Shown here piece by piece: positions 3,562 to 53,208 of a DNA stretch of 64,000 nucleotides. The stretch covers positions 1,210,088 to 1,274,087 of the forward strand of contig OY730415.1 of assembly GCA_963422635.1 (NCBI GenBank). Reading direction: 5' to 3'. A program made the position numbers and the translations under genes. The stretch's first letter is position 1. Every line of letters starts with the position of its first letter. This stretch comes from Dehalococcoidia bacterium. Its GTDB lineage: Bacteria; Chloroflexota; Dehalococcoidia; Lucifugimonadales; UBA3495. The notes under the pieces were generated by a model that had not been told where the DNA came from, did no database searches, and worked only from the letters and a program-made list of their open reading frames with translations.

Positions 3562-3659
3562 GGGGGTACAAGGGGGGAATCGCCGGGAACTGGAAACCGC
3601 CGGCGTAGAAGGGGCGCTAAAATAGTTAATGAGAATCTATCTCTTGAGGGGGCGATGTG

Positions 3660-4025
3660 ATGCTGGGATCTCCTAATCGCTATGCGGCTGCCAGCCGGGA
3701 GTTTATGGAGAAGGCCTACCAGTATCTGGCAGCGGAGGACTTGCCGCAAGCCTCGGAAAAGGGTTGGGGGGCGGCGGCGGAGATGGTCAAGGCGGTCGCC
3801 GAGGAACGGGGGTGGCCGCACGACAGCCACCGCCTGTTATACCGGATTGTCCGCAATCTGGTGAACGAAACCGGGGATTCGCAGCTATCCAACTTGTTTC
3901 GGACAGCCTCCGATCTGCACATCAATTTTTACGAGAATTGGCTGCCGCCCGAGGATGTCCAATTGGCCCTTCAAGAGGTTCAGCAGTTGCTGACCAAGTT
4001 GGAGCCGTTGCTGGAAGCGGGGTAG
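3660..4025 (+). CDS. PaREP1/HEPN-like helical protein, tandem copy 1
   Basis: 121 aa. ASEKGWGAAAEMVKAVAEERGW-HDSHR and LHINFYENW resemble the PaREP1 family (tentative, from memory). First of three tandem paralogs. Confidence 0.45.
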   Translation: MLGSPNRYAAASREFMEKAYQYLAAEDLPQASEKGWGAAAEMVKAVAEERGWPHDSHRLLYRIVRNLVNETGDSQLSNLFRTASDLHINFYENWLPPEDVQLALQEVQQLLTKLEPLLEAG

Positions 4026-4155
4026 GGGCGGAGCGAGAGAGCAGGAAGATCATCGGGAATTATTGTTGCGGTCTTTGGGCGGGTAGGGGCGCGGTTCCAA
4101 ACCAGGGGATATAGGCGCGGTTATGCCGTTGCAATCGACTTACAGGAGCGACGTG

Positions 4156-4521
4156 ATGCTGGGATCCCCTAATCGCTATGCGGCTGCCAGCCGGGAGTTT
4201 ATGGAGAAGGCCTACCAGTACCTGGCAGCGGAGGACTTGCCGCAAGCCTCGGAAAAGGGTTGGGGGGCGGCGGCGGAGATGGTCAAGGCGGTCGCTGAGG
4301 AACGGGGGTGGCCACACGACAGCCACCGCTTGTTGTATGGCATCGTCCGTAATCTGGAACAGGAAACTGGCGATGCGCAACTGTTCAGCGGGTTTCAGAT
4401 GGCTTCCGGTCTGCACATCAATTTTTACGAGAACTGGTTGCATCCGGAGAACATCCGGCGGTCTCTTCAAGAGGTTCAGCAGTTGCTGACCAAATTGGAG
4501 CCGTTGCTGGAAGCGGGGTAG
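4156..4521 (+). CDS. PaREP1/HEPN-like helical protein, tandem copy 2
   Basis: Start exactly 496 bp after copy 1. RBS AGGAG is 6 nt upstream of GTGATG. N-terminal about 60 codons nearly identical to copy 1. Confidence 0.45.
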   Translation: MLGSPNRYAAASREFMEKAYQYLAAEDLPQASEKGWGAAAEMVKAVAEERGWPHDSHRLLYGIVRNLEQETGDAQLFSGFQMASGLHINFYENWLHPENIRRSLQEVQQLLTKLEPLLEAG

Positions 4522-4651
4522 GGGAGGAGCGAGGGAGCAGGAAGATCATCGGGAATTATTGCTGCGGTCTTTGGGCGGGTAGGGGCGCGGTTCCAAACCA
4601 GGGGATATAGGCGCGGTTATGCCGTTGCAATCGACTTACAGGAGCGATGTG

Positions 4652-5017
4652 ATGCTGGGATCTCCTAATCGCTATGCCGTTGCCAGCCGGGAGTTTATGG
4701 AGAAGGCTTATCAGTATCTGGCAGCGGAGGACTTGCCGCAAGCCTCGGAAAAGGGTTGGGGGGCGGCGGCGGAGATGGTCAAGGCGGTCGCCGAGGAACG
4801 GGGGTGGCCGCACCGACACCATCGTCTGTTGTATGAGATTATCGAGGATTTGGTAGATGAAACCGGGGATGAGGAACTGGCGGTTCTGTTTGAGCGAGCA
4901 TCCCGGTTGCATGCTAATTTCTACGAGAACTGGTTGCGGTCGCGGGCCGTCCGGCGCTCGTTGCTAGCCGTTCAACAACTGCTGACCAAGTTGGAGCCGT
5001 TGCTGGAAGCGGGGTAG
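4652..5017 (+). CDS. PaREP1/HEPN-like helical protein, tandem copy 3
   Basis: Start exactly 496 bp after copy 2. Same N- and C-termini, divergent centre (HRHHRLLYEIIEDLVDETGDEE...). Confidence 0.45.
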   Translation: MLGSPNRYAVASREFMEKAYQYLAAEDLPQASEKGWGAAAEMVKAVAEERGWPHRHHRLLYEIIEDLVDETGDEELAVLFERASRLHANFYENWLRSRAVRRSLLAVQQLLTKLEPLLEAG

Positions 5018-5570: not shown

Positions 5571-6776
5571 CTAGCGGGCCAAGCCGTAAGCGATGGCCCG
5601 GAGGTTCGGGTCTTCCGTGTTATTCAGCGCGGCGGCCACCGCAGCAATTAGCTTGCCGCCGGCAGTGTTGCCCCAGAACCAGCGGTGCAGGGCGTCCTCA
5701 TCGGCCTCCGGATTCTGTTCCATCCGGGCTTCGTAGTAGAAAGCCTTCAAGTCGTCGGCGCAGTAGCGGATGAACTGGGGACGGGACACGCTGGCTGGCC
5801 GCTCCGTCATGTCGGCCTCCGCATCACCATGGGCGCAGGCTTCGAGGAAACGGACCACTCCCCGGAAACGGCGCTGGGGGATGGCGCAGAGGCCGACGGC
5901 GGTGCGTCCGGCGTGATTTTCCACCCAACGCTCGTAGAAGGCGCGCAGGGCGGTTACCTCGTCGGCGGCGCTGCGTTCGGTGGGCGGCGGCTCGACGGTT
6001 ACCTGGGATGCTTGAGGCATACCGGACGGGACCGCAGCGTCATCGTCGGGGAAATCGGTTAATACCGGCCCTTGGGGAGCCTGAAGCAAATCCAGCGCGG
6101 CCTCGATTACCCGGCTCTGGTATTCAGCATCGTCGGGTTTACCCAGGGCAAAACCGAAGAAGAAAGGTACGAAGAGGGCGCGGGGCGGCTTTACCTTTTC
6201 GGCGTGTTCCCGCACCATAGCGATGGTAGTGGTGGCGATGCCATGTTCCTCGAAAACCCGGGCCAGCACACTCACGGTGTGGGTGCAGAGAGGTCAAGTA
6301 GGGGTAAGCAGCGCCACGTCCACTCCCTCGTCTTGCAATCGCCGAGCCACTTCCGGGCCGGTTTCCTCGATCATCCGGCGAGGGTCGCGGAGGGCGCCCA
6401 TAAAGGAGTAATAGTTCTCGGCCAGGCTGCCGACCGCGCCCCGTTCCGCTAACTCCCGCAAACGGTCAATGGGGAAGGTTACGTTCAAGTCCCGGTAGAT
6501 GCCGGTATGGTCGAAGCCAATGGAAAAGTGGCTTTGGATTACATCTGCCGGGTTGCAGTCGCTGGGGATAACCCGGTAGGTGAACTCGCCGCCCGGGTCG
6601 TCCCGATTAAAGGGTTTGTCGTCGCGAAGGTGCAGGCCGGCGGAGGTTATCAGGGCCACCTTGCTTTGGGACAGCGGCTTGACCGGCGTAACCCAGGGCG
6701 TGGCGTCATGCTCGATGCAAGGGAAGAACTCCAGGGTTCGGCGCTGGACCTCGCTGAGGGTTTCTAATCGGGGCAT
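5571..6776 (-). CDS. GrdB-family (glycine/sarcosine/betaine reductase protein B-like) candidate selenoprotein; Sec codon at 6294-6296
   Basis: ORFs 6294..6776 and 5571..6275 share one frame and are separated only by TGA plus 6 sense codons. Read-through gives ...VALLTPT-U-PLCTHTVSVLARVFEEHGIATTT. A hairpin at 6267-6281 starts 12 nt after the UGA. Confidence 0.6.
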
Positions 6777-6872: not shown

Positions 6873-7964
6873 TTAAAACACGATGGCGCCCCGCCCAACC
6901 TCTCCCTGGTCCATATCGCCGTAAGCTTCGTTTATCTGCTCCAGGGAGTAGCGCCGGAGCACCAGGTCGTCCAAGTTTAGCTTGCCGGACTGGTACAGGT
7001 CAATCATAGTGGGCATATCGGTGCGAGAACGGGCCGAGCCGTAGTAGGTGCCGCGCAGGGTTTTCTCGTTGCGCACCAGGTCAACGGCGTTAATCGGGGC
7101 CTCGGCGCCGATGGGGGCAATGCCGACCACTGTTACCGTCCCGTTCTTGCCGCACATATCGTAGGCCGCCTTGACCGTCTCGGCGGAACCGAAAACCTCA
7201 AAGGTATAGTCGGCGCCCCGGCCGCCGGTCAATTCTTTGACCTGGGCTACCGGGTCCCGGTCGGCGGCGTTGACCGAGTGGGTAGCGCCGAACTTCATGG
7301 CGAACTCCAACTGGCTTTCCCGGATGTCCACGGCGATGATGGTGGCGGCGTTGAGCAGTTTGGCGCCCATAATCACGTTGAGGCCCACCCCGCCGCAGCC
7401 CACCACCGCGACGGCGCTGCCGGGCTGAACGTTGGCGCTGAACATGGTGGCGCCGACGCCGGTGGGAACGCAGCAACCAATCATCGCCGCCTTGTCCATC
7501 GGCAACTCGGTATGGGTGGGAATACAACCGGTTTCGGGAACTATGGCGTACTCGGCAAAGCAGGCGACCTTGCCCATGTGGTGTAGGTCTTGGCCGTTTT
7601 TGTGCAGACGAGTGGTACCGTCCAGCATAAAGGGGCCGGTAGCCATGTGCAGGTCGCAGACGTTAGAGCGGCCTTCGAGGCAGGATTTGCAGCGACCGCA
7701 GGCCGGGACAAAGGAGAGGATTACCTGGTCGCCGGGCTTGGCGAGGGTTACCCCCGGCCCGACCTTTTCCACCGTGCCGGCCCCCTCGTGGCCCAGGACG
7801 GCGGGCAGGTTGATGTGGGCGTCGCCGTGCATAAAGTGCCGGTCGCTGCGGCAAATTCCGGCGGCGCCGATTTTTACCAGAACCTCGCCGGCCTGGGGTT
7901 CGTCCAAATCCACATCTTCAACCACTAAAGGTTGACCATATTCGTACAAAACGGCAGCCTTCAC
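6873..7964 (-). CDS. Zinc-dependent alcohol dehydrogenase (class III-like)
   Basis: GICRSDRH, GHEGAGTVEKVG and GCGGVG motifs; 363 aa. Confidence 0.9.
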   Translation of the reverse strand: MKAAVLYEYGQPLVVEDVDLDEPQAGEVLVKIGAAGICRSDRHFMHGDAHINLPAVLGHEGAGTVEKVGPGVTLAKPGDQVILSFVPACGRCKSCLEGRSNVCDLHMATGPFMLDGTTRLHKNGQDLHHMGKVACFAEYAIVPETGCIPTHTELPMDKAAMIGCCVPTGVGATMFSANVQPGSAVAVVGCGGVGLNVIMGAKLLNAATIIAVDIRESQLEFAMKFGATHSVNAADRDPVAQVKELTGGRGADYTFEVFGSAETVKAAYDMCGKNGTVTVVGIAPIGAEAPINAVDLVRNEKTLRGTYYGSARSRTDMPTMIDLYQSGKLNLDDLVLRRYSLEQINEAYGDMDQGEVGRGAIVF

Positions 7965-8067
7965 GGGTGCGCCTCCTGAGCTATATTGCCGACTATCATC
8001 TATCCCTGCCCGGAATATGTCAACTATCGACCGGCGGGGCCGGGGCGTCGGGGGCGGCTTGGGCGTG

Positions 8068-8076
8068 TGTTAGAAT
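8068..8076 (+). promoter_or_regulatory. Candidate extended -10 promoter (TGtTAGAAT)
   Basis: TGT+TAGAAT lies about 55 nt upstream of the ATG at 8131. Confidence 0.35.
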
Positions 8077-8130
8077 ATCCGGTAGGCCCGAGCAGGGGTT
8101 TGGCGACTTTTCGTATTGGGGAGATGCTCT

Positions 8131-8760
8131 ATGTCCCGGAAGGTTAAAGTGTGGGCGGGCAAGGCGTTGCTGGCCTTGGCGCTGTTGGTATCCGTCGCCG
8201 GCTTGGCGACTTCGATGTATTGGTCAACGTATCGGTCAACCGGCGACTCTTCGGAAAAGGCGGGTTCCGACTATATTCTGACCAGCGAGGACTTTCCGGC
8301 GGCGTCTGCGGAGGTGGGTAATCAGGTGGGCGACCGGGTTCCCGATTTCGCCCTGGAGTTGGCGGACGGGACCACGGTTACGTCGGCGAGCCTGGTAGCG
8401 GAGGGTCGGCCCACCTTCCTGTTTTTCTGGGCCACTATTTGAGGGGTTTGCACCGCCGAGTTGCGGCGGATGAAAGAGGTTTATCCCGAATATGCCGCGG
8501 ATGTGGATTTTTATGCCGTGGGAGTCCACCCCGGCATTGTTGAGGATATTACTGCTTTGGAGGATTATCGCCGGGAACAGGGCCACCCCTGGCCGGTGGC
8601 GACAGCTCCGGGCCAGGTTATGGCCGATTTGGGGGTAACCATCCAGTCCACCAAGCTAGCTTTCAATTCTCGGGGGGTGATAACCTACCGGGAAGGGATG
8701 GGCCTGGGCGATGATGAAACTTGGCGCCAGGTGTTCGGGGGGTTGGCAGAGCCGCAGTAG
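8131..8760 (+). CDS. Thioredoxin-fold TlpA/redoxin-like protein, candidate selenoprotein (U-G-V-C); Sec codon at 8440-8442
   Basis: ORFs 8116..8442 and 8461..8760 are in one frame. TGA replaces the first Cys of the expected W-C-x-x-C motif: TFLFFWATI-U-GVCTAELRRMKEV. N-terminal TM/signal anchor present. Hairpin CCGCCG-AGUUG-CGGCGG at 8453-8469. Confidence 0.6.
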
Positions 8761-8942
8761 GAGCAGGGGAATCGCCGCCGGTTAGCGCGTTCGGGGTTGG
8801 AGCAGCGCGCCAATATCCGGTCGGTCGTCCATAAACCGGGCCATTGCCGCAAGAGCGGCGGCAGCGGTATCAAATCGCCAATGCGCTGGTCGCATTCGAT
8901 ACCATACTTTCTTTATCCGCTATCCCCGCTATTTCACAACCG

Positions 8943-9305
8943 TCAAATACTTTCCCGCAGTAGAACCTTATGGCGTGAGGTAACGGTTAAATCCATACTG
9001 GCCGGGTCGCAATACCGGTCAAACTCCCGGGCATCGCCCTTTATATGCCGGTGTTCTGAAACCAGAGTTCCATAGAACTGAACTTGGCCGATGGAGTTTA
9101 CCCCGCTGAGCTTGGCGGCCAAGGATGTGGTTCCGGCGCCGAGGAAGGGGTCAGCGATCCAGTGTTGCGGCGTAAGCCCATTCTCTTCAATTTTGGCTTG
9201 CACCAGTTTGTAGGAGTAGCCGGCCGGGTAGGTGAACCAGCGGTGAATCGGCGCTTTAAGGCTATCTTGAAAGGAGCCGTAACGCGGTTTGGCCGTTTCC
9301 AACAA
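8943..9305 (-). pseudogene. Truncated DNA methyltransferase fragment (N4/N6 type)
   Basis: HRWFTYPAGYS and DPFLGAGTT (AdoMet motif I) are present. ...GDAREF...SMDLTVTS then stops where TSPPY would be expected. Only 120 aa; locally lower GC. Confidence 0.45.
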
Positions 9306-9387
9306 TTCAGGCTCCTTTAATAAGCGTCATAGTAATCGTCGTTTTGCAACGAAAACGAATGAGTTACCGCCGATGGCTTGGTCTGCG

Positions 9388-11724
9388 TTACTTCTCCACC
9401 TTTTCCAGGCCGGCGTAGCTGAGCAGGAGCCGCCGCAGTTCGCCGCCGTCGAAGCGGACGGATACTTCGTAGTCGTTACCCCACGCCTCGCAGGCCATGA
9501 CCACCCCTACGCCGAATCGGCTGTGCCGCACCCCGTCGCCGATTTCCGGCACGTATCCCGGCGGCGGCTGGGTCGGGGCGGCGGCGGATGAACCGGGGGG
9601 CGAGCCGGGGGCTGAACCGGAGGATAAGGAATGCGGCTCCCGGTTCCGCGAGGGGGGACGCGGGCTGTCGGCAAGCCGGGCCGATGACGCTCCGGTTCCG
9701 GTTCCGGCGCGATTACCCCTTACGTTGCTGCCGGGGGCGCGGGCGTAGGTAGTTAGCTCCTCCGGAATCTCATCCAGAAAACGGGAGCGCAGAGTGGGGC
9801 CGCTGCTGCCCCACATGCTGCGGCGGAAGGCGCGCACTAAGTACAGCTTCTCCTTGGCTCGGGTGATGCCCACATAGCAGAGCCGCCGTTCCTCCTCCAG
9901 TTCTTCGTTGCTGTCCATGGAGCGGCTGTGGGGCAACAGACCCTCTTCCAGACCCACGATGAACACTACCGGAAACTCCAGTCCCTTGGCCTGATGCAGG
10001 GTAATTAGGGTAAGGGTGTCTTCCGATTCTTCGTAGCTGTCGGCATCGGAAACCAGGGAAACCCGCTCTAACAGGGCGGCCAGATCGTTCTCTGGGGAGT
10101 CGGAATGGTGTTCTCCGGCCAAGGCGATGAACTCCCGGAGGTTTTCCAGTCGTTCTTCCGGGCTGTTGTCGTTGCGCTGGATGTGGGCTTCCAGGCCCGA
10201 CTCGGCCAGGGTTAGCTTAATCAGGTCCGCCACCGGCATTTTGGTCTTGAGTTCGGTCAGGCGGCCCAGCAGGTCGCCGAACCGGGCCACGGCGGTATAG
10301 GCGCGGGATGCCAGGGGCGCCGGACAAGGCATCCCAGCGGCTTTGGCCTGGGATACCAGGAGGAGGGCGGCATAAACCGAGAGGCCCTGGCCGATGGACC
10401 AGTTGGTCAAGTCCTGAATCGACTTGTCGCCGATGCCCCGGGGCGGCGTATTGATGGCCCGCGCCAGGTTCAGGTCGTCTTGGGGGTTGTGGAGCAGGAA
10501 AAGGTAGGCGAGCAGGTCGCGGATTTCCCGCCGCCGGTAAAACTGGATGCCGCCGATAATGCGATACTTTATCCCTTGGCGCAGGCAGGCTTCTTCCAGG
10601 GCGCGGGATTGGGCGTTTACGCGGTACATCACGGCGCAGCGGCCGGGGGGTATTCTTTCCCGCCGGGCCAGGTCGTTTATCTGTTTAAGGACAAAGGCGG
10701 CCTCCTCATCCTGGGTATAAGCCTCGTGGATCACCACTTCCATCCCGGCGGGGTTCTCGGTGGTCAGTTCTTTGGGGGCCCGCATACCGTTGTTGGCGAT
10801 AAGACTGCTGGCCGCCCCCAGGATGGTTTGGGTGGAGCGATAGTTCTGCTCCAGGGTGATGACCTGGGCGTCCGGGTAGTCCTGCTGAAAGCTGAGAATG
10901 TTGCGGATGTCGGCGTTGCGCCAAGAGTAGATGGACTGGTCGGGGTCGCCGACCACGCAGATGTTCTGGTCGGGGCCGGTGAGCAGCCGGGCCAGCCGGT
11001 ACTGGGCGATGTTGGTATCTTGAAACTCGTCAATCATCAAGTATTCGTAGCGGCGCTGATACTCTTCGCGCACCTCGGCATTTTCGTAGAGGAGTTGGAC
11101 GGCTCGCAGCAGCAGGTCGTCGAAGTCCACGGCGTTGCGGCGCGCCAGCAGTTCTTCGTAGTGGTGATAGACTCGGGCGGCGGTTTCTTCCGGGTAGCTG
11201 TCATCGGTCTGGGCCTGCCGGGCCAGGGCTTCCGAACCCATCAGCAGGCTCTTGGCCCGGGAGATGATGGCCTGCATCGCCCGGGGTGGGTTGCGCTGGT
11301 CGTCAACGTCGGCTAGTTTCATGGCCTGCTTAAGCAGGCCCAACTGGTCGTCCGAGTCGTAAATGGTGTAATTGGCGTCGAGGCCGACGCCGTAGCCGTG
11401 GCGGCGGAGCAGCCGGGCGCAAAAGGAGTGGAAGGTGCCGGCAAAGATGGCGTCGGCCGCCGACTGGTTACTGCCGAAAAGGGACTGGGTGCGCTCCCGC
11501 AGTTCCCGGGCTGCTTTGTTGGTAAAGGTAACGGCGGCGATGCGGTAGGGGCTGACCCGGCATTCCTGCGCCAAGTAAGCGATGCGGTGGGTGATGACCC
11601 GGGTTTTGCCGCTGCCCGGCCCGGCGACAATCAGCAGCGGGCCGGCGGTGTGCAACACCGCTTCCGCCTGAGCGGGGTTCAGCCCGTCGATCAGGTTAAT
11701 GCCTGGAGCGTTTGGTTGATGCAT
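9388..11724 (-). CDS. pcrA: ATP-dependent DNA helicase PcrA/UvrD
   Basis: AGPGSGKTRV, TFTNKAA, DEFQDTN, GDPDQSIYSWRNA, NYRS, TLHQAKGLEF and YVGITRAK motifs, with a C-terminal Tudor-like tail. Confidence 0.9.
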   Translation of the reverse strand: MHQPNAPGINLIDGLNPAQAEAVLHTAGPLLIVAGPGSGKTRVITHRIAYLAQECRVSPYRIAAVTFTNKAARELRERTQSLFGSNQSAADAIFAGTFHSFCARLLRRHGYGVGLDANYTIYDSDDQLGLLKQAMKLADVDDQRNPPRAMQAIISRAKSLLMGSEALARQAQTDDSYPEETAARVYHHYEELLARRNAVDFDDLLLRAVQLLYENAEVREEYQRRYEYLMIDEFQDTNIAQYRLARLLTGPDQNICVVGDPDQSIYSWRNADIRNILSFQQDYPDAQVITLEQNYRSTQTILGAASSLIANNGMRAPKELTTENPAGMEVVIHEAYTQDEEAAFVLKQINDLARRERIPPGRCAVMYRVNAQSRALEEACLRQGIKYRIIGGIQFYRRREIRDLLAYLFLLHNPQDDLNLARAINTPPRGIGDKSIQDLTNWSIGQGLSVYAALLLVSQAKAAGMPCPAPLASRAYTAVARFGDLLGRLTELKTKMPVADLIKLTLAESGLEAHIQRNDNSPEERLENLREFIALAGEHHSDSPENDLAALLERVSLVSDADSYEESEDTLTLITLHQAKGLEFPVVFIVGLEEGLLPHSRSMDSNEELEEERRLCYVGITRAKEKLYLVRAFRRSMWGSSGPTLRSRFLDEIPEELTTYARAPGSNVRGNRAGTGTGASSARLADSPRPPSRNREPHSLSSGSAPGSPPGSSAAAPTQPPPGYVPEIGDGVRHSRFGVGVVMACEAWGNDYEVSVRFDGGELRRLLLSYAGLEKVEK

Positions 11725-33716: not shown

Positions 33717-34514
33717 ATGACCACCAGTTCGGTAGCATGGACTGAAGAGACAGTAGAGGTAGCCGGCGGCCAAATCCAGCTGCTCAAGGGCGGCTCCGGC
33801 GCGCCGCTGTTAGTTCTCCACGACGAAATGGGACACCCCGGCTGGCTGCGCTGGCACGAAGCCCTGGCCCAAAATCGCACCCTTTATATCCCCTGGCACC
33901 CCGGCTTTGGCCCGTCGCCGGAGTTGGATTGGGTAATGAACCTGCACGACCTGGCCGTCTGGTACTTGGGCGCCCTGGACGACCTGGGCTTGGCGGACGT
34001 GGATGTAATCGGCTTTTCCCTGGGCGGCTGGCTGGCGGCGGAAATGGCGGTGATGTGTCCGCCGCAGTTCCGGAAGCTGACCCTGGTGGCCGCCGCTGGC
34101 GTCCGCCCCCCGGAAGGTGAAATCTACGACATCTTCCAGGTAGTCGCCAAGTCCTATATCAACCGCTGCCTGCTGGCCCCGGAGTCGGTAGCCGAGTTCC
34201 AGTCCATCTGCCCCGACGAGCCGACGCCGGAGCAGCAGGAAAACTGGGAAACATCGCTGGAGGGCGCCTGCCGCCTCAGTTGGCGGCCCTACATGCACTA
34301 CCCGGCCCTGCCCCATCTGCTGCCCCGCCTCAAGCGGCTGCCCACCCTGCTGGTCTGGGGCCGCCAAGACCCCATCATTCCCTTGAGCGCCGGCCAGCTC
34401 TACCACGCCTCCATCCCCAACTCCCGCCTGGAGATAATCGAAAACTGCGGTCACCGCCCCGAAGTAGAACACCCGGAACGGTTCGTCGAGCTGGTGCGGG
34501 AGTGGTTGGGGTAG
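33717..34514 (+). CDS. Alpha/beta-fold hydrolase
   Basis: GFSLGGW nucleophile elbow (GxSxG), C-terminal His (NCGHRPEVEHPE); RBS AAGGAG. Confidence 0.8.
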   Translation: MTTSSVAWTEETVEVAGGQIQLLKGGSGAPLLVLHDEMGHPGWLRWHEALAQNRTLYIPWHPGFGPSPELDWVMNLHDLAVWYLGALDDLGLADVDVIGFSLGGWLAAEMAVMCPPQFRKLTLVAAAGVRPPEGEIYDIFQVVAKSYINRCLLAPESVAEFQSICPDEPTPEQQENWETSLEGACRLSWRPYMHYPALPHLLPRLKRLPTLLVWGRQDPIIPLSAGQLYHASIPNSRLEIIENCGHRPEVEHPERFVELVREWLG

Positions 34515-34585
34515 GGGGGAGACGGGGCAGTTTATGCAAGTTTCTTGTCGCATACCTCAACGACACGACCTGTTGTGGAGACGTT

Positions 34586-35794
34586 ATGAAGCTAACAAAA
34601 GCTCAGCAACAAGCAGTGAAATATAGTGGCCGAAACCTACAATTGATCGCTTGCGCAGGTTCAGGTAAAACCGAAGTGGTAGCGCAGCGGATCGCTCACC
34701 TGCTTACCAAACCCGGGTCCGACCGTCTCGAACCTAAAAATATTGTTGCGTTCACTTTCACCAATAAGGCCGCTTCTGAACTGAAGGAACGTATTGTCGA
34801 AAGAACAAAGGAAGCAGCAGAGGGCGAAGTTACCGGAATGGCCAATATGTACGTCGGCACCATTCACGGGTTTTGCCAGGAACTTCTGCAATCTGAGGTC
34901 CCACAGTACTCGAAATATGAGATTCTGGAGGCTGTTCGACAGGGGATTTACGTGGATCGCTATAGTACCCAAACCGGGTTGACCACTACTTCCACTCTCA
35001 ACGGGCGAGCATTAAAGCGGTGGAGCGACACCAGCCGGTACCTGGATGCTTTGTCGGTCTTGCGAGAGGATGAGGTCGATGGCGATAAATTGGAAGATTG
35101 CTCCATATGGGAAGGTCTGCGCAAATATCGTAACCGGTTAACTGAAGATTCATACTTTGACTTTTCTGCATTGCTTGAGATAGCCGTTGCAGAACTTGAG
35201 AACAACAAAGATCTGAGATCTAAAATATCTGAACAGTTAAAATACGTGGTAGTTGATGAATACCAGGATGTCAACCCTATCCAAGAAAGATTAGTAAAGC
35301 TATTGTACGATTTGGGCGCCAACTTATGCGTTGTTGGGGACGACGACCAAACCATTTATCAATGGCGAGGCAGCTCAGTCGAAAACATCTTGACCTTCCA
35401 AGACCGCTATTCTCCCGTGGAACAAATTAGGCTTGAAGAGAATTTCAGGTCCAGTCAAGGTGTTATTGATACAGCCCGCATGTTCATAGAGAAAGTTGAA
35501 GGTAGATTGCGCAAAGCAATGAAAGCAACCGATGCTCAACCATTTGAGACAGGAGACGTGGTTGCCCTGTCCTTCGAAACGCCAGAAGCAGAGGCCAAGT
35601 ATATTGCCGAAACAATCAAGTCGCTACGTGGAGTGGCATTCGACGATGGTGATAGCAAGCGCGGCATTTCGTGGTCAGACATGGCAGTTCTGTTAAGAAG
35701 CGTAAGAAATAATGGAGTAGTCATCACAGAAGCGCTGAAGCTTGCAAATATTCCGTTTGTTGTCAGTGGGTTGGTTAATCTCTTTGAGGCGTAA
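34586..35794 (+). CDS. UvrD/Rep-type SF1 helicase, N-terminal part (motifs Q-IV) of an interrupted helicase-nuclease gene
   Basis: ATG at 34586 preceded by GGAG. CAGSGKTEV, FTFTNKAASEL, VDEYQDVN, VVGDDDQTIYQWRGS and ENFRSS motifs. Ends at TAA 35792-35794 inside the helicase fold. Confidence 0.8.
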   Translation: MKLTKAQQQAVKYSGRNLQLIACAGSGKTEVVAQRIAHLLTKPGSDRLEPKNIVAFTFTNKAASELKERIVERTKEAAEGEVTGMANMYVGTIHGFCQELLQSEVPQYSKYEILEAVRQGIYVDRYSTQTGLTTTSTLNGRALKRWSDTSRYLDALSVLREDEVDGDKLEDCSIWEGLRKYRNRLTEDSYFDFSALLEIAVAELENNKDLRSKISEQLKYVVVDEYQDVNPIQERLVKLLYDLGANLCVVGDDDQTIYQWRGSSVENILTFQDRYSPVEQIRLEENFRSSQGVIDTARMFIEKVEGRLRKAMKATDAQPFETGDVVALSFETPEAEAKYIAETIKSLRGVAFDDGDSKRGISWSDMAVLLRSVRNNGVVITEALKLANIPFVVSGLVNLFEA

Positions 35795-35926
35795 GAAGCG
35801 CGAGCAGCCAGAGACCTTTTCTACTTTATATCGGGCGCATCGTTCGACTCGTCCCAGCTAGATGCCACTGCGCTACGCCAGTCGTGGGATCAAGCCCAAC
35901 TTGGTATATCAAAAGAAAAACTGGAC

Positions 35927-37339
35927 GTGGCGTTGAGATATGCCGAAAGCGTCCACGCCGATTTACGCTCTGAAGGCTCCAGTAATGCGCCAACTATACA
36001 AAGAGCGTTTCTGAAATTCCTAGAACTAACGGAGGTTCGGGAGGAAAAAATCCCGGACAATCGCGGTGAGGTCGTGTTCTTCAACCTCGGGAGGTTCAGT
36101 GAAGCTATTACGGATTGGGAAACTATTCATTTCAGGTCAAAGCCAATAGACTCTTTCCAATCATTCGCACGGTTTCTCTGCTACCAAGCTGAAGGCTCTT
36201 ATAGTGAAGGGGCCGAAGACAATGATTATATAGTCCCTGACGCTGTTCAAATTATGACAGTCCACCAGGCTAAGGGCCGAGAGTGGCCCGCAGTGTTTTT
36301 ACCCGCTCTGTTGCGAAATCGCTTTCCATCGTCTAACCGGAAGAGTTCCGTTTGGGATTTAGTCCCTGGCCAAGCAATTAATAACTCTGCCCGTTATGAT
36401 GGATCCAAAGAGGACGAAAGGCGCCTGTTTTACGTCGCTATGACGAGAAGCAAGAAGTTTCTCCATATGACTTGGGCGCCAATTCAAGGAAAGAACAATA
36501 GGTACGCTAGGAAGTCGGAGTTCTGGGACGACGTTTTGGCATCCGAATACGTTAAACGGCGTCATCCTGATTACGCAGATCGCCGCCGTATAGAAGCCCA
36601 ACCAAAAGCCTCTGTCGCCAATGTTGAGTTTTCTTTCAGTGACTTGAAATACCTATTCGAATGCCCATACCAGTTCAAACTGAGGGTCTTGTACGGTTTC
36701 AATAATCCACTCGTTCCCCCAATGGGTTACGGGAAGTCGCTACACGATGCTTTGGCGGAAGTACACCAGCGCGCAATGCGTGGCAAGATGGTCACCGTAG
36801 ACGATGTCCCTGAACTGGTCAACTGCCATTTGCGGATTCCGTACGCTGCACAAGACTTGCGCGACCGGCTTGGAGAGTTAGCTCATCGAGATATCACCAA
36901 CTACATCGTTGACAATGCTGAAAACCTCCGCTACATAGAGTTCTACGAGCAGTCAGTCCAAGTTAACCTCGATGATGGCGTTAGCATTAAGGGCCGTATC
37001 GATTTGGTGCGCCGCACCGATACTAACGAAACTACCATCGTGGATCTTAAATCCAACGAGCGTAGCCAAGAAGAAGAGGTGACTGAAACACAACTGCATA
37101 CCTATGCACTAGGGTATCAAGAACTCACTGGGAAAGATGCCGACTTCGTTGAGATATATGAGCTAGAGGGCAGGCGTCCTATCAAAAGAGCGGTGGATGA
37201 AGGGTTCATAGACGACGTCCGTACCAAAACCCTAGATGCTGCCAAGTCATTGCGCACGATGAAACTTGAGCCCACCCCTAGCGTAGCAACTTGTCATCAG
37301 TGTGATTTTTCCGCTCTCTGTAGCAAGAGCTTGAGCTAA
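35927..37339 (+). CDS. UvrD C-terminal helicase domain fused to a Cas4/AddB-type PD-(D/E)XK nuclease (same frame as 34586..35794; frame is open from 35795)
   Basis: Helicase motifs TVHQAKGREWPAVF (V) and RLFYVAMTRSKKFL (VI). Nuclease motifs ECPYQF, GRIDLV, IVDLKS, QLHTYALGY and terminal CHQCDFSALC (4-Cys cluster). Confidence 0.75.
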   Translation: MALRYAESVHADLRSEGSSNAPTIQRAFLKFLELTEVREEKIPDNRGEVVFFNLGRFSEAITDWETIHFRSKPIDSFQSFARFLCYQAEGSYSEGAEDNDYIVPDAVQIMTVHQAKGREWPAVFLPALLRNRFPSSNRKSSVWDLVPGQAINNSARYDGSKEDERRLFYVAMTRSKKFLHMTWAPIQGKNNRYARKSEFWDDVLASEYVKRRHPDYADRRRIEAQPKASVANVEFSFSDLKYLFECPYQFKLRVLYGFNNPLVPPMGYGKSLHDALAEVHQRAMRGKMVTVDDVPELVNCHLRIPYAAQDLRDRLGELAHRDITNYIVDNAENLRYIEFYEQSVQVNLDDGVSIKGRIDLVRRTDTNETTIVDLKSNERSQEEEVTETQLHTYALGYQELTGKDADFVEIYELEGRRPIKRAVDEGFIDDVRTKTLDAAKSLRTMKLEPTPSVATCHQCDFSALCSKSLS

Positions 37340-44139: not shown

Positions 44140-45177
44140 CTATAGCGGGCCGCCCATAAACACCGCAGCCTGTTTCCGAAAGACCTGAAGGCGTTGGCGA
44201 GAGCATTCCACCACAAAGACCCGGCCCGCATCATCCACCTCTACCGCTATCGGCCCGTGGAACTGCTTCTCGCGCTCCCGCAGACCCTGGGCCATTTCCC
44301 GGCCCCGCAGGATCGTCGGGTCCAGTTCCACCCGCTCCCGGCCCCACTTGGACAAGGTTGCCTCGCCGGTCAGCTTGGCGATAAAGTCGCCATCGGCGTT
44401 GAACACCTGGAGGCGGTCGTTCTTGAAGTCGGTAACGTAGATGATTCCCTCCTGGTCCACGGCGACTCCGGTGGGCCGGTTGAACTCCCCGTCCTCCTGA
44501 CCGGAGGCGCCAAACTTCATCAGGAACTGCCCGTCCGGGGCGAACTTCTGGATGCGGTCATTGCGCCAGTCCGCCACGTACACCGCCCCGTTGGGGTCAA
44601 TCTCGATGCCCCAAGGGTAGCTAAACTCCCCGTCCCCGCTGCCTTCGCGGCCCCATTGGGCCAGATACTTACCCTCTTTGGTGAATATCTGGATCCGGTG
44701 ATTTGCGCTGTCCACCAGGTAAAGGTTATCTGCGGCGTCGAAGGCCAGCCCGGAGGGACGGTTGAACTTGCCGTCGCCGTCGCCGAGGGTTCCCCACTTG
44801 CCGAGGCAGCGACCTTCCGGGTCAAAAATGGTAATCCGGTTGAGCCACTCGTCGGCCACGTAAGCGTTGCCGGCGCGGTCCAGGGCGACCGATGTGGGCC
44901 ACATAAAGCTGCCGTCGGGGGCGGAGGCGTCGGCTTCTTCCGGGGGAACCTTCTGGCCGAACTCGCGGACTAGCTCTTCATCCACCGTGAAGACGGTAAC
45001 CCGCTTGCAGGGGAAAAAGGCCGGAGTTTCTGAACCGCGGCTCAGCACATATAACCGGTTTTCTGGGTCCCGCGTTATCGCCACCGGGTAGAAGAACCCG
45101 GTTCCGCTCCGGTTCTCCTGCCGTCCAATGGTGTGGCTGTATTGAAAAGTTATCGGCGCAATTTCAGTAGTAACCAT
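44140..45177 (-). CDS. NHL-repeat six-bladed beta-propeller protein (cassette 1)
   Basis: Repeated ...P.G(I/V)A.D..G..YV.D..N.R(I/V)Q.F... blades x5-6. ATG at 45177 aligns with the paralog start MVT. Confidence 0.75.
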   Translation of the reverse strand: MVTTEIAPITFQYSHTIGRQENRSGTGFFYPVAITRDPENRLYVLSRGSETPAFFPCKRVTVFTVDEELVREFGQKVPPEEADASAPDGSFMWPTSVALDRAGNAYVADEWLNRITIFDPEGRCLGKWGTLGDGDGKFNRPSGLAFDAADNLYLVDSANHRIQIFTKEGKYLAQWGREGSGDGEFSYPWGIEIDPNGAVYVADWRNDRIQKFAPDGQFLMKFGASGQEDGEFNRPTGVAVDQEGIIYVTDFKNDRLQVFNADGDFIAKLTGEATLSKWGRERVELDPTILRGREMAQGLREREKQFHGPIAVEVDDAGRVFVVECSRQRLQVFRKQAAVFMGGPL

Positions 45178-45209
45178 TTTGCCTGCCCTCACAAAAGCGT
45201 CTTTTCATC

Positions 45210-45259
45210 AGGTAAGGCGGCGCTGGCGGCGGTCGACCGCCGCCAGCGCCGCCTTACCT
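45210..45259. repeat. Perfect 50-bp palindrome (25-bp arms, no loop)
   Basis: aGGTAAGGCGGCGCTGGCGGCGGTC|GACCGCCGCCAGCGCCGCCTTACCt. Verified base by base as its own reverse complement. Confidence 0.95.
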
Positions 45260-45273
45260 TTCCGATGGTCAAG

Positions 45274-46410
45274 TTACTTGATAAAGTCAAACTGCTCGTA
45301 GGCGCCGCCGAGTACGGGGTTGGCGTCGAGGCCCATCCACTGTTCCAGCAGCGCGGCGTAGGTTCCCCGGAAGTCATTGTTCCACCGTAGGTCGCCCTCA
45401 TCCAGCTTCTCCGGTTCCAGCGACGGGTACTCGCCGTACAGTCCGCCCTTTACCGAATCGCCGATGACAAAGGCCACGCCGCCCGAGCCGTGGTCGGTGC
45501 CGGAGCCATTTTCCTTTACCCGCCGCCCAAACTCGGTGAAGAGCAGCATCACGACTTCCTCGTTGGCATTATGCTCCTTCAAGTCCTGGTAGAAGTCGCC
45601 GATGGCGTTGGAGACGTCGCCCCACAGTTTGGGGAAGGTGATGTTCTGGTTGGCGTGGGTGTCGAAGGTGCCGGGGTTGACGCCGGTGTAAAGCACTCGC
45701 GTCCCGAAGTTCGCCAAGTGCACTTGGGCGATGTTTTTCAGCCATTGGGCGAAGGGGCTGCCGCCATACTCGACGCTGGAGGAATAGATTTCGGGAGCGG
45801 CGCTCAGGATGTCGGCGCCCTTCAGCGCGTCCAGACCGGTTTGGGAGAGGTAGTCGTTAACTGGCCCGGAGCCGATCATCGGGGAATACATCCGGCCAAA
45901 AATATCGAGGGCTTCCATCCGTTCTTCCTCGCCGCCGATGCCGGTCAGCACCCCGTAGCTTGCCAAATCGCCGACGGAGGCTACCGATACGCCGGGGGCG
46001 GCCAAGGCCCGGGGCAGGCCGCGGCCAAAGTTGACGGCGGTCAGGATATTCTCCTTGTTGGGGTCCAGGTCGCGGATCGCCTTGCCCAGCCAGCCGTCGG
46101 TTACCATTTTTTCCGGCTCGGCGGTGTGCCAGATGTCCAGGGAGCGGAAGTGGGAGCGAATGGGGTTGGGGTAGCCGATACCTTGCATAACGGCCACTTT
46201 GCCCTCGTCATACAGCTCCTTCAGGGGAGCCATGGCCGGGTGGAACCCGACCTTGTCGTCAACGGCCAGTACATCTTCGGGTGAAACTTGCAAGGTCGGG
46301 CGATAGTCGGGATAGTGGGGGTCGCTGTAGGGGATAAAGGTGTTTAGCGCATCATAAGCGCCGGTCATCTGAAGTATCACCAAGACCGGGTCTTTCTTGT
46401 TGGAGGTCAT
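45274..46410 (-). CDS. DUF1501-family protein (sulfatase/phosphatase-like fold), cassette 1
   Basis: RSHFRSLDIWHT, FDTHANQ and EFGRRVKENGSGTDHG motifs. No Tat/Sec signal at the N-terminus. Confidence 0.8.
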   Translation of the reverse strand: MTSNKKDPVLVILQMTGAYDALNTFIPYSDPHYPDYRPTLQVSPEDVLAVDDKVGFHPAMAPLKELYDEGKVAVMQGIGYPNPIRSHFRSLDIWHTAEPEKMVTDGWLGKAIRDLDPNKENILTAVNFGRGLPRALAAPGVSVASVGDLASYGVLTGIGGEEERMEALDIFGRMYSPMIGSGPVNDYLSQTGLDALKGADILSAAPEIYSSSVEYGGSPFAQWLKNIAQVHLANFGTRVLYTGVNPGTFDTHANQNITFPKLWGDVSNAIGDFYQDLKEHNANEEVVMLLFTEFGRRVKENGSGTDHGSGGVAFVIGDSVKGGLYGEYPSLEPEKLDEGDLRWNNDFRGTYAALLEQWMGLDANPVLGGAYEQFDFIK

Positions 46411-46517
46411 GCTCTTCTCCTTCTCGGTATGAGGTACGAGGTAGGGGTTGGTTTTGTAGCGTCGTCTTTCAGCCGTCTTTCCGTCTTTTAATTGTTGGGG
46501 CCGGTCGCTGGTTCCGG

Positions 46518-47921
46518 CTAGGCGTAGAGATATTCCTTGGTGGCTACGATCATCTGAAGTATTTGGCTAACTTGTTCGGGAAACTCCTGGGTATGGGTAG
46601 GCAACTCCCCGCTCTTTCGGGCGTGTTCCACCAGCATCCGGTAATTCTCCTCGGCCAGTTCGTAGTGGCCCAATAGCCGCAGGCAACCATCCACCAAGTT
46701 TTCCGGAGTTAGGGTGGGGCCTTCCGCCGCCAGTTTCCGAACTATGTCCTGGACGCCGGGGTAGCTGACATCCCCCACATAGTCGGCAATGAAGTTAATG
46801 CGGCGCACCAAGGTTCCGCCGTCAATCCACTCCTTGCCGGTATGCCAGCCCTCCACGGAAGGGGGATTTAGTATCTCTTGCCCCATGTGTTTCATTTCGT
46901 CGAAAATGGACTCAAAGCCGGGTTTGGGCGAGGTCCAGTCGCCAACCAGGCGCAGAGTTCCGATTACCGTCTCGATGGGGCCTTTTATGCGGGAAAAGCG
47001 CGCCTTCTTGAAGGCGTCGGAGTTAAACAGCGTCCGTAGCATAGAACGGATGTCGTAGCCGGAGCGGAAATACTCGGCTTCCAGCAGCTTGATGGTGTCC
47101 GGGTCCCGGGGCGGGGTATCCATCCAGGCCGGCACCTGAGCTTCGTCAGCGACGAAGAAACTGTAGAGGTGGCGAGAGATGAATCGGGCGGTGGCCGGCT
47201 GCTGACAGATAATGTCAATAATGTCCTCGCCGTTAAAGTTGCCGGTGCGACCCAAAAAAGTCTTCTCGCCTTCATCGTGGTCTTGGGGGTTATATACAAA
47301 CTGCGAACTGTAGCGGCCATAGGGTTGTCCGGGGATGCCGTTGGCGATCGTCCAGCCGGTAAAGGCCCGGGCGCACTCCTTCACGTCATCCTCGGTGTAG
47401 TTGAACTGCCCGTCCATGCCCACGCCCATGGAAAATAGCTCCAGCAGCTCCCGTCCGTAGTTCTCGTTGATTGCGTCTTTGTGGCTCAAGCAGTTGTCCA
47501 GAAAATAGACCATCGCCGGGTCTCGGGAAATCTCGATCAAGAGGTCTCGGAAGCTGCCCATCCCGCACCGGCGGAGCATCTCCAACTCGGCGTTAGAGGT
47601 AACATAACTTTGGGTCTTGCTGTCCGCCGTGCACAGGATGCCATGCCAGAAAAGGACCATTTTCTCTTCTAACTGGCTCCTGGAGTTTATCATGCGCCAC
47701 GCATTGTATTCGGGGACGCAGCGGATGAAGTGATTCCATTCGATGAAGCTCCGTTCCGCCAGATCCAGGTCCATCCCATTCGAATGGTCTTCAGGGTGGA
47801 GCAGTTCCTCCACGGTGGCCTCGTATCCCTGGGCGGCGCGGGCTGCCAGTTCTTCGTACTGCGCCCCAAATCCGGCGCGCCGCATCAGGTGGGCCATCAA
47901 AGCGATGTCGTTATCTGCCAT
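46518..47921 (-). CDS. DUF1800-family protein, cassette 1
   Basis: LMAHLMRRAGFGA, FWHGILCT, YFLDN...NENYGRELLELFSMG and YTEDDVKECARAFTGW motifs. Confidence 0.8.
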   Translation of the reverse strand: MADNDIALMAHLMRRAGFGAQYEELAARAAQGYEATVEELLHPEDHSNGMDLDLAERSFIEWNHFIRCVPEYNAWRMINSRSQLEEKMVLFWHGILCTADSKTQSYVTSNAELEMLRRCGMGSFRDLLIEISRDPAMVYFLDNCLSHKDAINENYGRELLELFSMGVGMDGQFNYTEDDVKECARAFTGWTIANGIPGQPYGRYSSQFVYNPQDHDEGEKTFLGRTGNFNGEDIIDIICQQPATARFISRHLYSFFVADEAQVPAWMDTPPRDPDTIKLLEAEYFRSGYDIRSMLRTLFNSDAFKKARFSRIKGPIETVIGTLRLVGDWTSPKPGFESIFDEMKHMGQEILNPPSVEGWHTGKEWIDGGTLVRRINFIADYVGDVSYPGVQDIVRKLAAEGPTLTPENLVDGCLRLLGHYELAEENYRMLVEHARKSGELPTHTQEFPEQVSQILQMIVATKEYLYA

Positions 47922-50801: not shown

Positions 50802-51848
50802 CTACAGGTTTCTGGCCGGGCTGGAATAGTTGTTCAGCTTGTTGTAAATCTGGATTCGGCTGCGCTGGGTGTCGAGGATTAGTAGGCGGTTATTCGGGGC
50901 GTCGAAGGCTACCGCCCGGGGCATTTGCAGGCGCCATTCCGCTTGGAAGTTCTTGACCTCCCGGCGCCGTTTCACTGCCTCCGGGTTGGTTTGCACGATC
51001 ATCTGCGCCCACTTGGTCAGTTGCCGGGCGTCGCCGATGAAGCTGGTAAAGAACTTCCCGGAGGGGTCAAAAGCCTGCACCCGGTCGTTGCCCCAGTCGC
51101 AGACGTAAACGTCGCCGTCCGGGTCAACGGCCACGTCCGAGGGGTGGTTCAGTTCGCCTCGTCCGACGCCATAGCTGCCAAACTGGGCCAGATATTCCCC
51201 TTGGGGAGTGAACTTCTGGACTCGATGATTCTTGTGGTCCACCACGTAAAGGAAGCCTTCCCGGTCGAGGGTGATGCCCCAGGGCGAATTGAGTTGGCCG
51301 TCGCCGCTGCCGGGGCCGCCGAACTTGGCGAGGAAGCGGCCGTCGTTGCTGAACTTCTGGACCCGGTGATTTCGGCTGTCCACGATATATAGGTTATCGT
51401 CCTTGTCGCAGACTATGCCGGAGGGGCCGTCGAACTCGCCGTCGCCGGTTCCCGTTGTTCCCCAGTCCCACAGCAAGTTACCCTCAGAATCGAAAACGTT
51501 GACCCGATTTAGCCACTCGTCGGTTACGTAAATGCGGTCGCGGGAATCGAGGGCGAGCCCGGCCGGCCAAGTCAACTCGCCCCGGCTGTCGCCATTGCGG
51601 CCAAACTCGGCGATAAATTCTTCGTCGCCGGCCTGAAGGCCCACGTCGAATTTGGTTACCCGGGCTCCGCGGGCGGTGCGGTTCCAGGGAACGGCGGTTA
51701 CCGCTTCGCCGCCCCGACTGAGGACGTACACTAAGTTATCTGAGCTGAAGGCCAGGGCGTTGCCGGAGGTGAAACCGGCGCCGACGCCCCCGCGACCCAT
51801 GGCGTGGCTGAAATCGTAAGCTCTGCCGGCTACTACCCGCGTTACCAT
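50802..51848 (-). CDS. NHL-repeat six-bladed beta-propeller protein (cassette 2)
   Basis: Paralog of 44140..45177, with the same blade pattern (YVTDEWLNRVNVF, YIVDSRNHRVQKF, YVVDHKNHRVQKF, YVCDWGNDRVQAF). Confidence 0.75.
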   Translation of the reverse strand: MVTRVVAGRAYDFSHAMGRGGVGAGFTSGNALAFSSDNLVYVLSRGGEAVTAVPWNRTARGARVTKFDVGLQAGDEEFIAEFGRNGDSRGELTWPAGLALDSRDRIYVTDEWLNRVNVFDSEGNLLWDWGTTGTGDGEFDGPSGIVCDKDDNLYIVDSRNHRVQKFSNDGRFLAKFGGPGSGDGQLNSPWGITLDREGFLYVVDHKNHRVQKFTPQGEYLAQFGSYGVGRGELNHPSDVAVDPDGDVYVCDWGNDRVQAFDPSGKFFTSFIGDARQLTKWAQMIVQTNPEAVKRRREVKNFQAEWRLQMPRAVAFDAPNNRLLILDTQRSRIQIYNKLNNYSSPARNL

Positions 51849-52009
51849 CTTTACTGGGCCTCCCGACGTTTTTCCAATGGGTTGGTACAGGTGGTATAGA
51901 AGGATTGAGTTGGAATGTTATGCTGGGCGCATTTGGGGAGGTTCCTAACTCAAAGGGCCAGCGTCCTTTTCAGGATTGCTGGCCCCGAAGGACGCGCCGG
52001 CGGAGCGCC

Positions 52010-53137: not shown

Positions 53138-53208
53138 TGTTTAATCTCCTTGCTAGGGCAACTCTGGGGGTATTTTATCGTATTTTTGCAGGTTTTCAAC
53201 CGGTTAGG

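Follow-up and report, generated by a model that had tools for sequence, protein, structure and literature searches.

We analysed a 64-kb stretch of DNA from a Dehalococcoidia bacterium (contig OY730415.1), which we call the window, and in it a gene at 8131-8760 that very probably is one intact selenoprotein gene, encoding a redoxin with selenocysteine (Sec, or U) in its active site. One frame on the + strand spans 8131-8760 with 209 codons, and its sole internal stop is the TGA at 8440-8442 (context ...GRPTFLFFWATI-*-GVCTAELRRMKEVYPEY...). An earlier note on this DNA had described two open reading frames (ORFs) in one frame around this TGA, and our translation of 8131-8760 agrees: ORFs 8116..8442 and 8461..8760, both on the + strand, share a frame. 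The likely start is the ATG at 8131, and a Shine-Dalgarno-like GGAG (8120..8123, + strand), which we read from the sequence and which presumably functions as such, lies 7 nt 5' of it. The complete coding sequence (8131..8760, + strand) has 209 residues, with Sec as residue 104, and ends at the stop TAG 8758-8760. A scan of 7900-9400 for promoters and terminators gave counts at chance level.

Several features of this gene, all on the + strand, bear on its interpretation. Near the N-terminus is a predicted transmembrane signal anchor (8164..8220; residues 12-30, ALLALALLVSVAGLATSMY), which follows four basic residues (R3, K4, K6, and K11) and has a mean Kyte-Doolittle hydropathy of 2.01 over 19 residues. 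The UGA that would encode Sec (8440..8442) is position 1 of a U-G-V-C redox motif, and the second, resolving Cys of this U-x-x-C is the TGC at 8449..8451. The putative core of a bacterial Sec insertion sequence (SECIS) lies at 8453..8469, and a Q-S-T-K motif (residues 172-175, 8644..8655) lies at the site of the cis-Pro loop in ResA, CcmG, and TlpA. If C is written at the stop, the protein matches the Pfam families AhpC-TSA (PF00578; 6.5e-14, 52.4 bits vs. a gathering score of 26) and Redoxin (PF08534; 3.3e-13, 50 bits, above the gathering score). Its NCBIfam matches are weak and fall far below the cut-offs (ResA, 39.4 vs. 170 bits; DsbE, 35.7 vs. 123; StoA, 28 vs. 210).

The TGA is conserved across relatives. 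We found it at the Sec codon in 70 distinct copies of the gene, spread over the genomes of 37 Dehalococcoidia/SAR202 species and over five metagenome contigs, so it is not the read error that the earlier note had considered as a possible refutation. A word-indexed search that covered 5.8 billion proteins returned only five relatives, all of them half-proteins: three end in ...FLFFWATT and two begin at a Met just past the hairpin. The contigs that encode these five have the same in-frame TGA, and the frame is open beyond it. A scan of one genome for each GTDB species added 37 loci, every one of them in metagenome-assembled genomes (MAGs) of Dehalococcoidia, SAR202, or "Chloroflexi." The same scan also found a distant gene from Flavihumibacter with Cys in place of Sec (FLFFWATWCGGC).

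The alignment of these orthologues has invariant residues on both sides of the TGA. The residues that are encoded 3' of it (x-x-C-T/A-A-E-L) are conserved as amino acids while the third codon positions vary (GTC/GTT/GTA/GTG and TGC/TGT); in particular, the second Cys is Cys in 70 of 70 copies, with synonymous TGC and TGT. Because the conservation 3' of the TGA is at the protein level, with synonymous variation in the third position, translation continues through the TGA. TGA is also an ordinary stop codon for many other genes in the window, such as a histidine kinase of 517 residues with a HATPase_c domain that reaches to residue 515. When we scanned the entire window for in-frame TGAs with a redox context, only the redoxin gene and a nearby PrdB-like gene looked genuine.

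The redoxin gene often occurs in tandem arrays, with 2-4 paralogues per locus, but the window has a single copy. There are four-copy arrays in L007 (8872, 9524, 10307, and 11092) and L021 (8866, 9518, 10301, and 11091), and a three-copy array in L009 (9454, 10298, and 11075). Each arrayed paralogue in these three loci has its own TGA and hairpin. The paralogues form three classes, with the motifs T-S-T-T-U-G-Q-C, F-F-F-A-T-T-U-G-V-C, and F-F-W-A-T-x-U-P-V-C. The one exception to the TGA is the copy at 11089 in L014, which has TAA at the Sec codon, a degenerate hairpin, and the motif P-T-*-P-T-C-T-L-G-L; this is probably a decaying paralogue. Two other copies are frameshifted near their 3' ends, at different sites (L003, around 6200-6260, whose record name includes a 2x tag; and L004, around 1180-1200). 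These frameshifts are probably indel errors, and because of them, the public ORF calls P0001 and P0002 end in out-of-frame sequence.

If the TGA encodes Sec, then we would expect some homologues to have Cys at this position, as the earlier note had also argued, and they do. We searched 1.84 billion cluster representatives exhaustively with HMMER, using the C-terminal half of the redoxin as the query, and found 160 relatives; 150 clusters are listed in the re-alignment. In 36 of the 150 listed clusters, the protein is full-length and has Cys aligned to the TGA site, mostly as A-T-W-C-P-x-C (WCxxC). Another 64 are short ORFs that begin 1-13 residues past the Sec site (27 at Met and 23 at a TTG Leu), which is what miscalled Sec genes would look like. 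The rest are 41 other fragments and nine proteins in which a residue other than Cys is aligned to the TGA. Among the full-length Cys forms, P0007 is the closest; it is 48% identical to the window protein over 158 amino acids (E = 6e-51), with X104 opposite C85. P0007 is found in three loci (L044, L045, and L046, at 7223-7744 in each), where a gene for a DUF4395 membrane protein precedes it and transposases lie around it. We did not see a DUF4395 gene beside the Sec forms.

Just past the UGA is a hairpin, exactly as the earlier note had drawn it: after a 10-nt spacer (8443-8452), CCGCCG (8453-8458) and CGGCGG (8464-8469) form a perfect 6-bp stem around the loop AGUUG (8459-8463). The SECIS of the E. 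coli fdhF type has a bulged U and a minimal upper stem-loop that lies 11 nt past the UGA and requires GU in its loop. The window's hairpin is similar to this element and to the bSECISearch consensus in that it lies inside the coding sequence, 10 nt past the UGA, and has a small loop with G-U at positions 2-3. Unlike the fdhF element, its stem is a short and perfect 6 bp, with no bulged U. We also compared it to the published bSECIS model, which allows loops of 3-9 nt, upper stems of 4-16 bp, UGA-to-loop distances of 16-37 nt, and a minimum free energy (MFE) of at most -7.5 kcal/mol, and which has a G within the first two positions of the loop, usually followed by G or U (PMC13188914, Fig. 2 legend). 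With its 5-nt loop that contains A-G-U, its 6-bp stem, and its UGA-to-loop distance of 16 nt with an MFE of -12.2 kcal/mol, the hairpin agrees with all four parts of this model.

Comparison across copies shows that this hairpin is maintained as RNA structure. We aligned 70 segments without gaps and found that the stem is paired in 98.1% of cells, with compensatory double changes in four of the six pairs (50 cells); 0 of 500 column shuffles reached this. Sliding the partner by 1-3 columns reduced pairing to 16-76%. RNAalifold, run on the 70-copy alignment, independently predicted the identical 6-bp stem, and it detected no conserved lower stem. The covariation is visible in the codons. For Ala in the 5' arm, 39 copies use GCC, with CGG (Arg) in the 3' arm, and 24 copies use GCU, with CAG (Gln) in the 3' arm; GCC is never combined with CAG. 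Both states are present in each major paralogue class, so this switch arose repeatedly. Similarly, the third base of the Thr codon varies in step with the second base of the next codon in the 3' arm (ACC/CGG, GCU/CAG, ACG/CUN). In the loop, all 70 copies use GAG for Glu and 66 of the 70 use UUG for Leu, while other Glu and Leu codons in the alignment vary freely. The nucleotides of the loop AGUUG are thus kept constant to a degree that the protein sequence would not require.

The genes for Sec insertion are present in this clade. One of the related loci, L009 (contig MPMM01000002.1), comes from "SAR202 cluster bacterium bin22" and carries three TGA copies of the redoxin gene. The bin22 genome (MPMM00000000, SAR202 clade) has two genes for SelA (COG1921), one for SelB (COG3276), and one for SelD (COG0709), and all five of the five SAR202 bins in that study hold SelA, SelB, and SelD (Slaby et al. 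2017, PMC5649159, Table 2 and Table S4). Also, the ten genomes with the most selenoprotein genes in BSepDB, which required at least two Sec-pathway genes per species, include two MAGs from Dehalococcoidia, one with 49 of these genes and the other with 46 (PMC13326102). Thus, in a lineage with SelA, SelB, and SelD, selection has kept both the UGA and a SECIS-like hairpin that covaries. The earlier note had placed the TGA at the first Cys of a WxxWCxxC site and had suggested Sec decoding as the simplest explanation; TGA in 70 of 70 copies, the Cys homologues, and the covarying hairpin support this.

The redoxin has the fold of the ResA/CcmG proteins. When we compared a profile of six orthologues to solved structures (HMMER), it matched CcmG/DsbE from E. 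coli (8e-10) and ResA (6e-08), with U opposite the first Cys of CcmG's WATWCPTC. We modelled the Cys homologue P0007 with AlphaFold (AF2), using an alignment of 28 sequences, and the window protein is represented by this 48%-identical form. In this model (predicted local distance difference test score, or pLDDT, of 89.7), C85 is directly before a helix (86-102) and S152 is directly before a strand (153-157). Its best matches in the PDB are to ResA (template modelling score, or TM, of 0.85-0.91 and root-mean-square deviation of 1.5-2.0 Å), followed by Etrx1/2, SdbA, CcmG, and other thiol-disulfide reductases that are likewise exposed at the surface; the peroxiredoxin AhpE first appears at rank 46. 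In the HMMER alignment to CcmG, Ser173 is matched to residue 144, which is the cis-Pro position and which is Ala in the best match (2g0f, a P144A variant). The corresponding xSTK is a signature of this family that is common to the Sec and Cys forms, with QSTK in 44 clusters. We also considered a Sco1/SenC-like copper chaperone, for which there is a weak Pfam match (0.0026). We rejected this because the protein's motif is of the CxxC type, not CxxxC, and the wider family has no conserved His.

As to location, many of the Cys homologues have N-termini of the lipobox type, that is, lipoprotein-type signal peptides. Because of these and the hydrophobic anchor, the redoxin domain is most likely extracytoplasmic. 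The membrane anchor and extracytoplasmic location that the earlier note had proposed are backed by hydropathy, by the homologues' signal peptides, and by the similarity of the fold to ResA, CcmG, and Etrx.

The protein shares its active-site register (WAT-x-U-x-x-C vs. WATWCPTC) and its N-terminal membrane anchor with ResA from Bacillus, CcmG/DsbE from E. coli, and TlpA. It differs from them in carrying Sec instead of the nucleophilic Cys, and the Sec forms have T, I, V, or Y instead of the Trp that precedes the active site. The protein is no orthologue of any of the three, because it lacks the cis-Pro, misses the NCBIfam cut-offs widely, and has no cytochrome-maturation or CcdA/DsbD gene as a conserved neighbor. 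Similarly, it resembles the peroxiredoxin selenoproteins in having PF00578, a thioredoxin-derived fold, and Sec in the active-site turn, but those carry T-x-x-U (PMC13188914), with Sec second, whereas the window protein has U-x-x-C, with Sec first, and Ser instead of Arg at the position equivalent to the cis-Pro.

We propose that when the ribosome reaches the UGA at 8440-8442, the hairpin at 8453-8469 would recruit SelB with Sec-tRNA(Sec), and Sec104 would be inserted. Sec104 would take the place of the nucleophilic Cys of ResA, CcmG, and TlpA, at the N-terminal end of the active-site helix. Given the fold and the motif, Sec104 may attack a disulfide or an oxidant, and Cys107 of U-G-V-C would then resolve the intermediate to form a selenenylsulfide, which a donor would re-reduce. 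The thioredoxin-fold domain would face the outside of the cytoplasmic membrane, held by the N-terminal signal anchor. Most likely, then, this is an extracytoplasmic thiol/selenol:disulfide oxidoreductase, and its probable role is to reduce oxidised envelope proteins or small oxidants. We have moderate confidence in a specific role as a reductase. The insertion of selenium, the topology, the substrate, and the electron donor are all predictions from sequence.

A number of observations weigh against this proposal. By itself, the hairpin is not significant in DNA with 60% GC content (z = -1.3; 20 of 200 shuffles fold as well), and its significance comes only from the comparison across copies. The stem also sits in conserved coding sequence, so the protein accounts for part of the stem's conservation. 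Searches of Rfam, with the whole window at the gathering threshold and with 8400-8540 at E ≤ 10, found no SECIS family and only a chance match to a snoRNA. Rfam's SECIS models are lineage-specific, so we do not count their failure to match against a SECIS.

Neither the window nor the 43 related loci contain selA, selB, selD, or tRNA-Sec, which is another point against. Specifically, ARAGORN found no tRNA-Sec in the window or the 43 loci; a Pfam scan of the 20 largest remaining ORFs in the window found no SelA, SelB, or SelD; and tblastn with approximate queries for E. coli SelA, SelB, and SelD found no match in the window or any of the loci, which is a weak negative. As to the function, the cis-Pro loop that is typical of this fold's disulfide reductases is absent, with Ser in the invariant QSTK instead. 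Furthermore, when we clustered the neighborhoods of about 40 loci (±7 kb), we found no recurring ccdA/dsbD, ccm/res, or msr genes, and the Pfam-annotated neighbors in L001 and L002 do not include ccdA, resBC, or ccm genes.

We weighed three other explanations. The TGA might be a true stop, in a pseudogene, in a misassembled locus, or between two separate small genes (8131-8442 and 8461-8760). Public gene callers do annotate the halves as separate ORFs, and two low-coverage contigs (L003 and L004) are frameshifted elsewhere in the gene. But TGA is at the same codon in 70 copies from 37 species, with conservation of amino acids across the junction; GVCTAEL, which lies between the TGA and the first possible start, holds the invariant second Cys; and either half would be an incomplete thioredoxin fold. 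The conservation of the TGA and of the junction in 70 copies effectively refutes a true stop, and we give it almost no weight. It is also very improbable that the UGA is read by a standard tRNA (a near-cognate Trp or Cys tRNA) or is reassigned, which would yield a protein without selenium. Such read-through would fit with the lack of Sec machinery in the 64-kb fragment, and judging by the Cys homologues, a thiol is functional at this position. On the other hand, TGA ends many genes in the window, and the only two in-frame TGAs in 64 kb that look genuine are both at U-x-x-C sites. A covarying hairpin at the distance of a SECIS has no role in simple read-through; the bin22 genome, which bears orthologues, encodes SelA, SelB, and SelD; and all 70 of 70 copies have TGA, with no drift to TGG, TGC, or TGT.

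The explanation that we take most seriously among these accepts a selenoprotein and changes its activity: the redoxin could be a selenol peroxidase, similar to peroxiredoxins (Prx) or glutathione peroxidases (GPx), that detoxifies peroxide at the cell surface, instead of a reductase of protein disulfides. Sec is typical of peroxide-reducing enzymes. AhpC/TSA is the best Pfam match; the cis-Pro loop, which disulfide reductases of the thioredoxin (Trx) fold use for substrate binding, is replaced by xSTK; neighborhood clustering gave no link to cytochrome-maturation genes; and the literature files UxxC selenoproteins with PF00578 under "Prx-like," with unknown function (PMC13188914, PMC2398784). 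However, U-x-x-C is in the thioredoxin register and is not T-x-x-C/U, and there is no Prx-type Arg at the cis-Pro position. In sequence and in fold, the nearest matches are to ResA, CcmG, Etrx, and SdbA, with AhpE only from rank 46. Overall, we consider a peroxidase to be unlikely, and we prefer disulfide reduction over peroxide reduction as the physiological activity of the selenoprotein, but because the cis-Pro is missing, peroxide reduction stays alive as an option.

This redoxin belongs to a class of selenoproteins that has already been described. Catalogues from 2004-2008 onward list selenoproteins that combine U-x-x-C with PF00578 or PF08534, under the names "Prx-like thiol:disulfide oxidoreductase," "Prx-like 1/3," or "Redoxin family protein" (Zhang et al. 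2006, PMC1794560; PMC2398784; PMC13188914, a 2026 review). Marine metagenomes contain many of them, along with PrdB-like selenoproteins (the 2008 selenoproteome of the Global Ocean Sampling, or GOS; PMC2398784). The window protein fits the definition in the literature, which is a PF00578/PF08534 domain and U-x-x-C (PMC13188914, Table 1; PMC2398784, Table 2). It is like these UxxC Prx-like and Redoxin selenoproteins in its Pfam domains, in having Sec first in U-x-x-C, in its Cys homologues, in its downstream SECIS, and in the marine bacterial hosts. Both U-x-x-C selenoproteins and selenoprotein-rich Dehalococcoidia are on record.

Unlike the UxxC Prx-like class as described, the family has a membrane anchor, xSTK in place of the cis-Pro, mostly Sec forms, and tandem arrays; this comparison is with the published descriptions of the class, whose representatives are WP_010940744.1 and HEU0032618.1. 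The family's signature strings had no match in the part of the GOS sequence supplement that we searched. What may be new is the xSTK without a cis-Pro, the predominance of Sec over Cys among detectable relatives, and the arrays of up to four Sec paralogues. More speculatively, these genes could be a distinct Sec-dominated subfamily of the ResA/TlpA fold that lacks the cis-Pro, with the signature F-F-W/F-A-T-x-U-x-x-C ... Q-S-T-K ... Y-R-x-G and with arrays of up to four anchored selenoproteins in marine and sponge-associated SAR202/Dehalococcoidia. Such a subfamily may form a selenol redox relay or a peroxidase system at the cell surface, with a chemistry or substrate beyond those of ResA, CcmG, TlpA, and Prx, and it may be uncatalogued as a family of its own. 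We hold this broader idea only tentatively, and it is rather more likely to be wrong than right.

The main gain is a correct annotation for a gene family that is split into two meaningless ORFs in dozens of public Dehalococcoidia and SAR202 genomes. Because of this splitting, the selenoproteomes and the envelope redox capacity of Dehalococcoidia/SAR202 are under-counted. The 70-copy alignment is also a natural record of covariation in a minimal bacterial SECIS that is embedded in coding sequence, and it could help to train SECIS models for Chloroflexota. The gene is further evidence of a heavy reliance on selenium among SAR202 from sponges and the deep ocean. No concept is changed, because U-x-x-C selenoproteins with thioredoxin folds are among the commonest in bacteria.

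The neighboring gene at 5571..6776 on the - strand is PrdB/GrdB-like and appears to encode a second selenoprotein, separate from the redoxin. The earlier note had reported an in-frame UGA in a GrdB-like gene, and it is real: there is one in-frame TGA, at 6294-6296 on the - strand, in the context ...LLTPT-*-PLCTH (T-U-P-L-C), and the protein matches both PrdB and GrdB selenoprotein models (TIGR04483, 1.7e-46, which is below the cut-off). The protein is about 400 amino acids long, with a long C-terminal extension past the PrdB-like part. This TGA is kept in syntenic copies in L012, L025, and L028 (80-87% identity), where the synteny includes the redoxin as well. The putative SECIS, CACAC-CGUGA-GUGUG, lies 12 nt past the UGA and is invariant in the four orthologues (the window, L012, L025, and L028). 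The earlier note had also claimed that the hairpins of the two genes match. There is indeed a hairpin with a GU loop past this UGA too, but the likeness is weak, and the PrdB-like hairpin folds no better than shuffles.

The sole recurring neighbor of the redoxin genes, in our clustering of about 40 loci, is a PcrA-type helicase. In the window, this PcrA/UvrD-type helicase gene (9388..11724, - strand) is convergent to the redoxin gene. It adjoins the redoxin gene or genes in 17 loci, including the window, so it is a synteny marker. Between the two genes, at 8943-9305 on the - strand, is a 120-amino-acid remnant of an N6/N4 DNA methylase (PF01555, covering 160-208 of the 221 positions of the profile).

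Elsewhere in the window, we noticed three tandem paralogous genes at 3657-5017 (+ strand) that encode proteins of about 122-132 amino acids from the archaeal PaREP1/PaREP8 family (PF05942, 1.5e-20), with near-identical N-termini. Another region looks like a foreign or split AddA/helicase-nuclease gene (34280-37339): it has separate ORFs for the N-terminal part of a UvrD-type helicase (34280-35794, + strand) and for a UvrD_C and PD-(D/E)XK nuclease part (35927-37339, + strand), and the GC content at third codon positions in these ORFs is 0.48-0.52 vs. about 0.75 in the rest of the window. Finally, two paralogous three-gene cassettes on the - strand (44140-47921 and 50802-54693) each encode a DUF1800 protein, a DUF1501 protein, and an NHL-repeat beta-propeller, with an Abhydrolase_10 gene between the cassettes.

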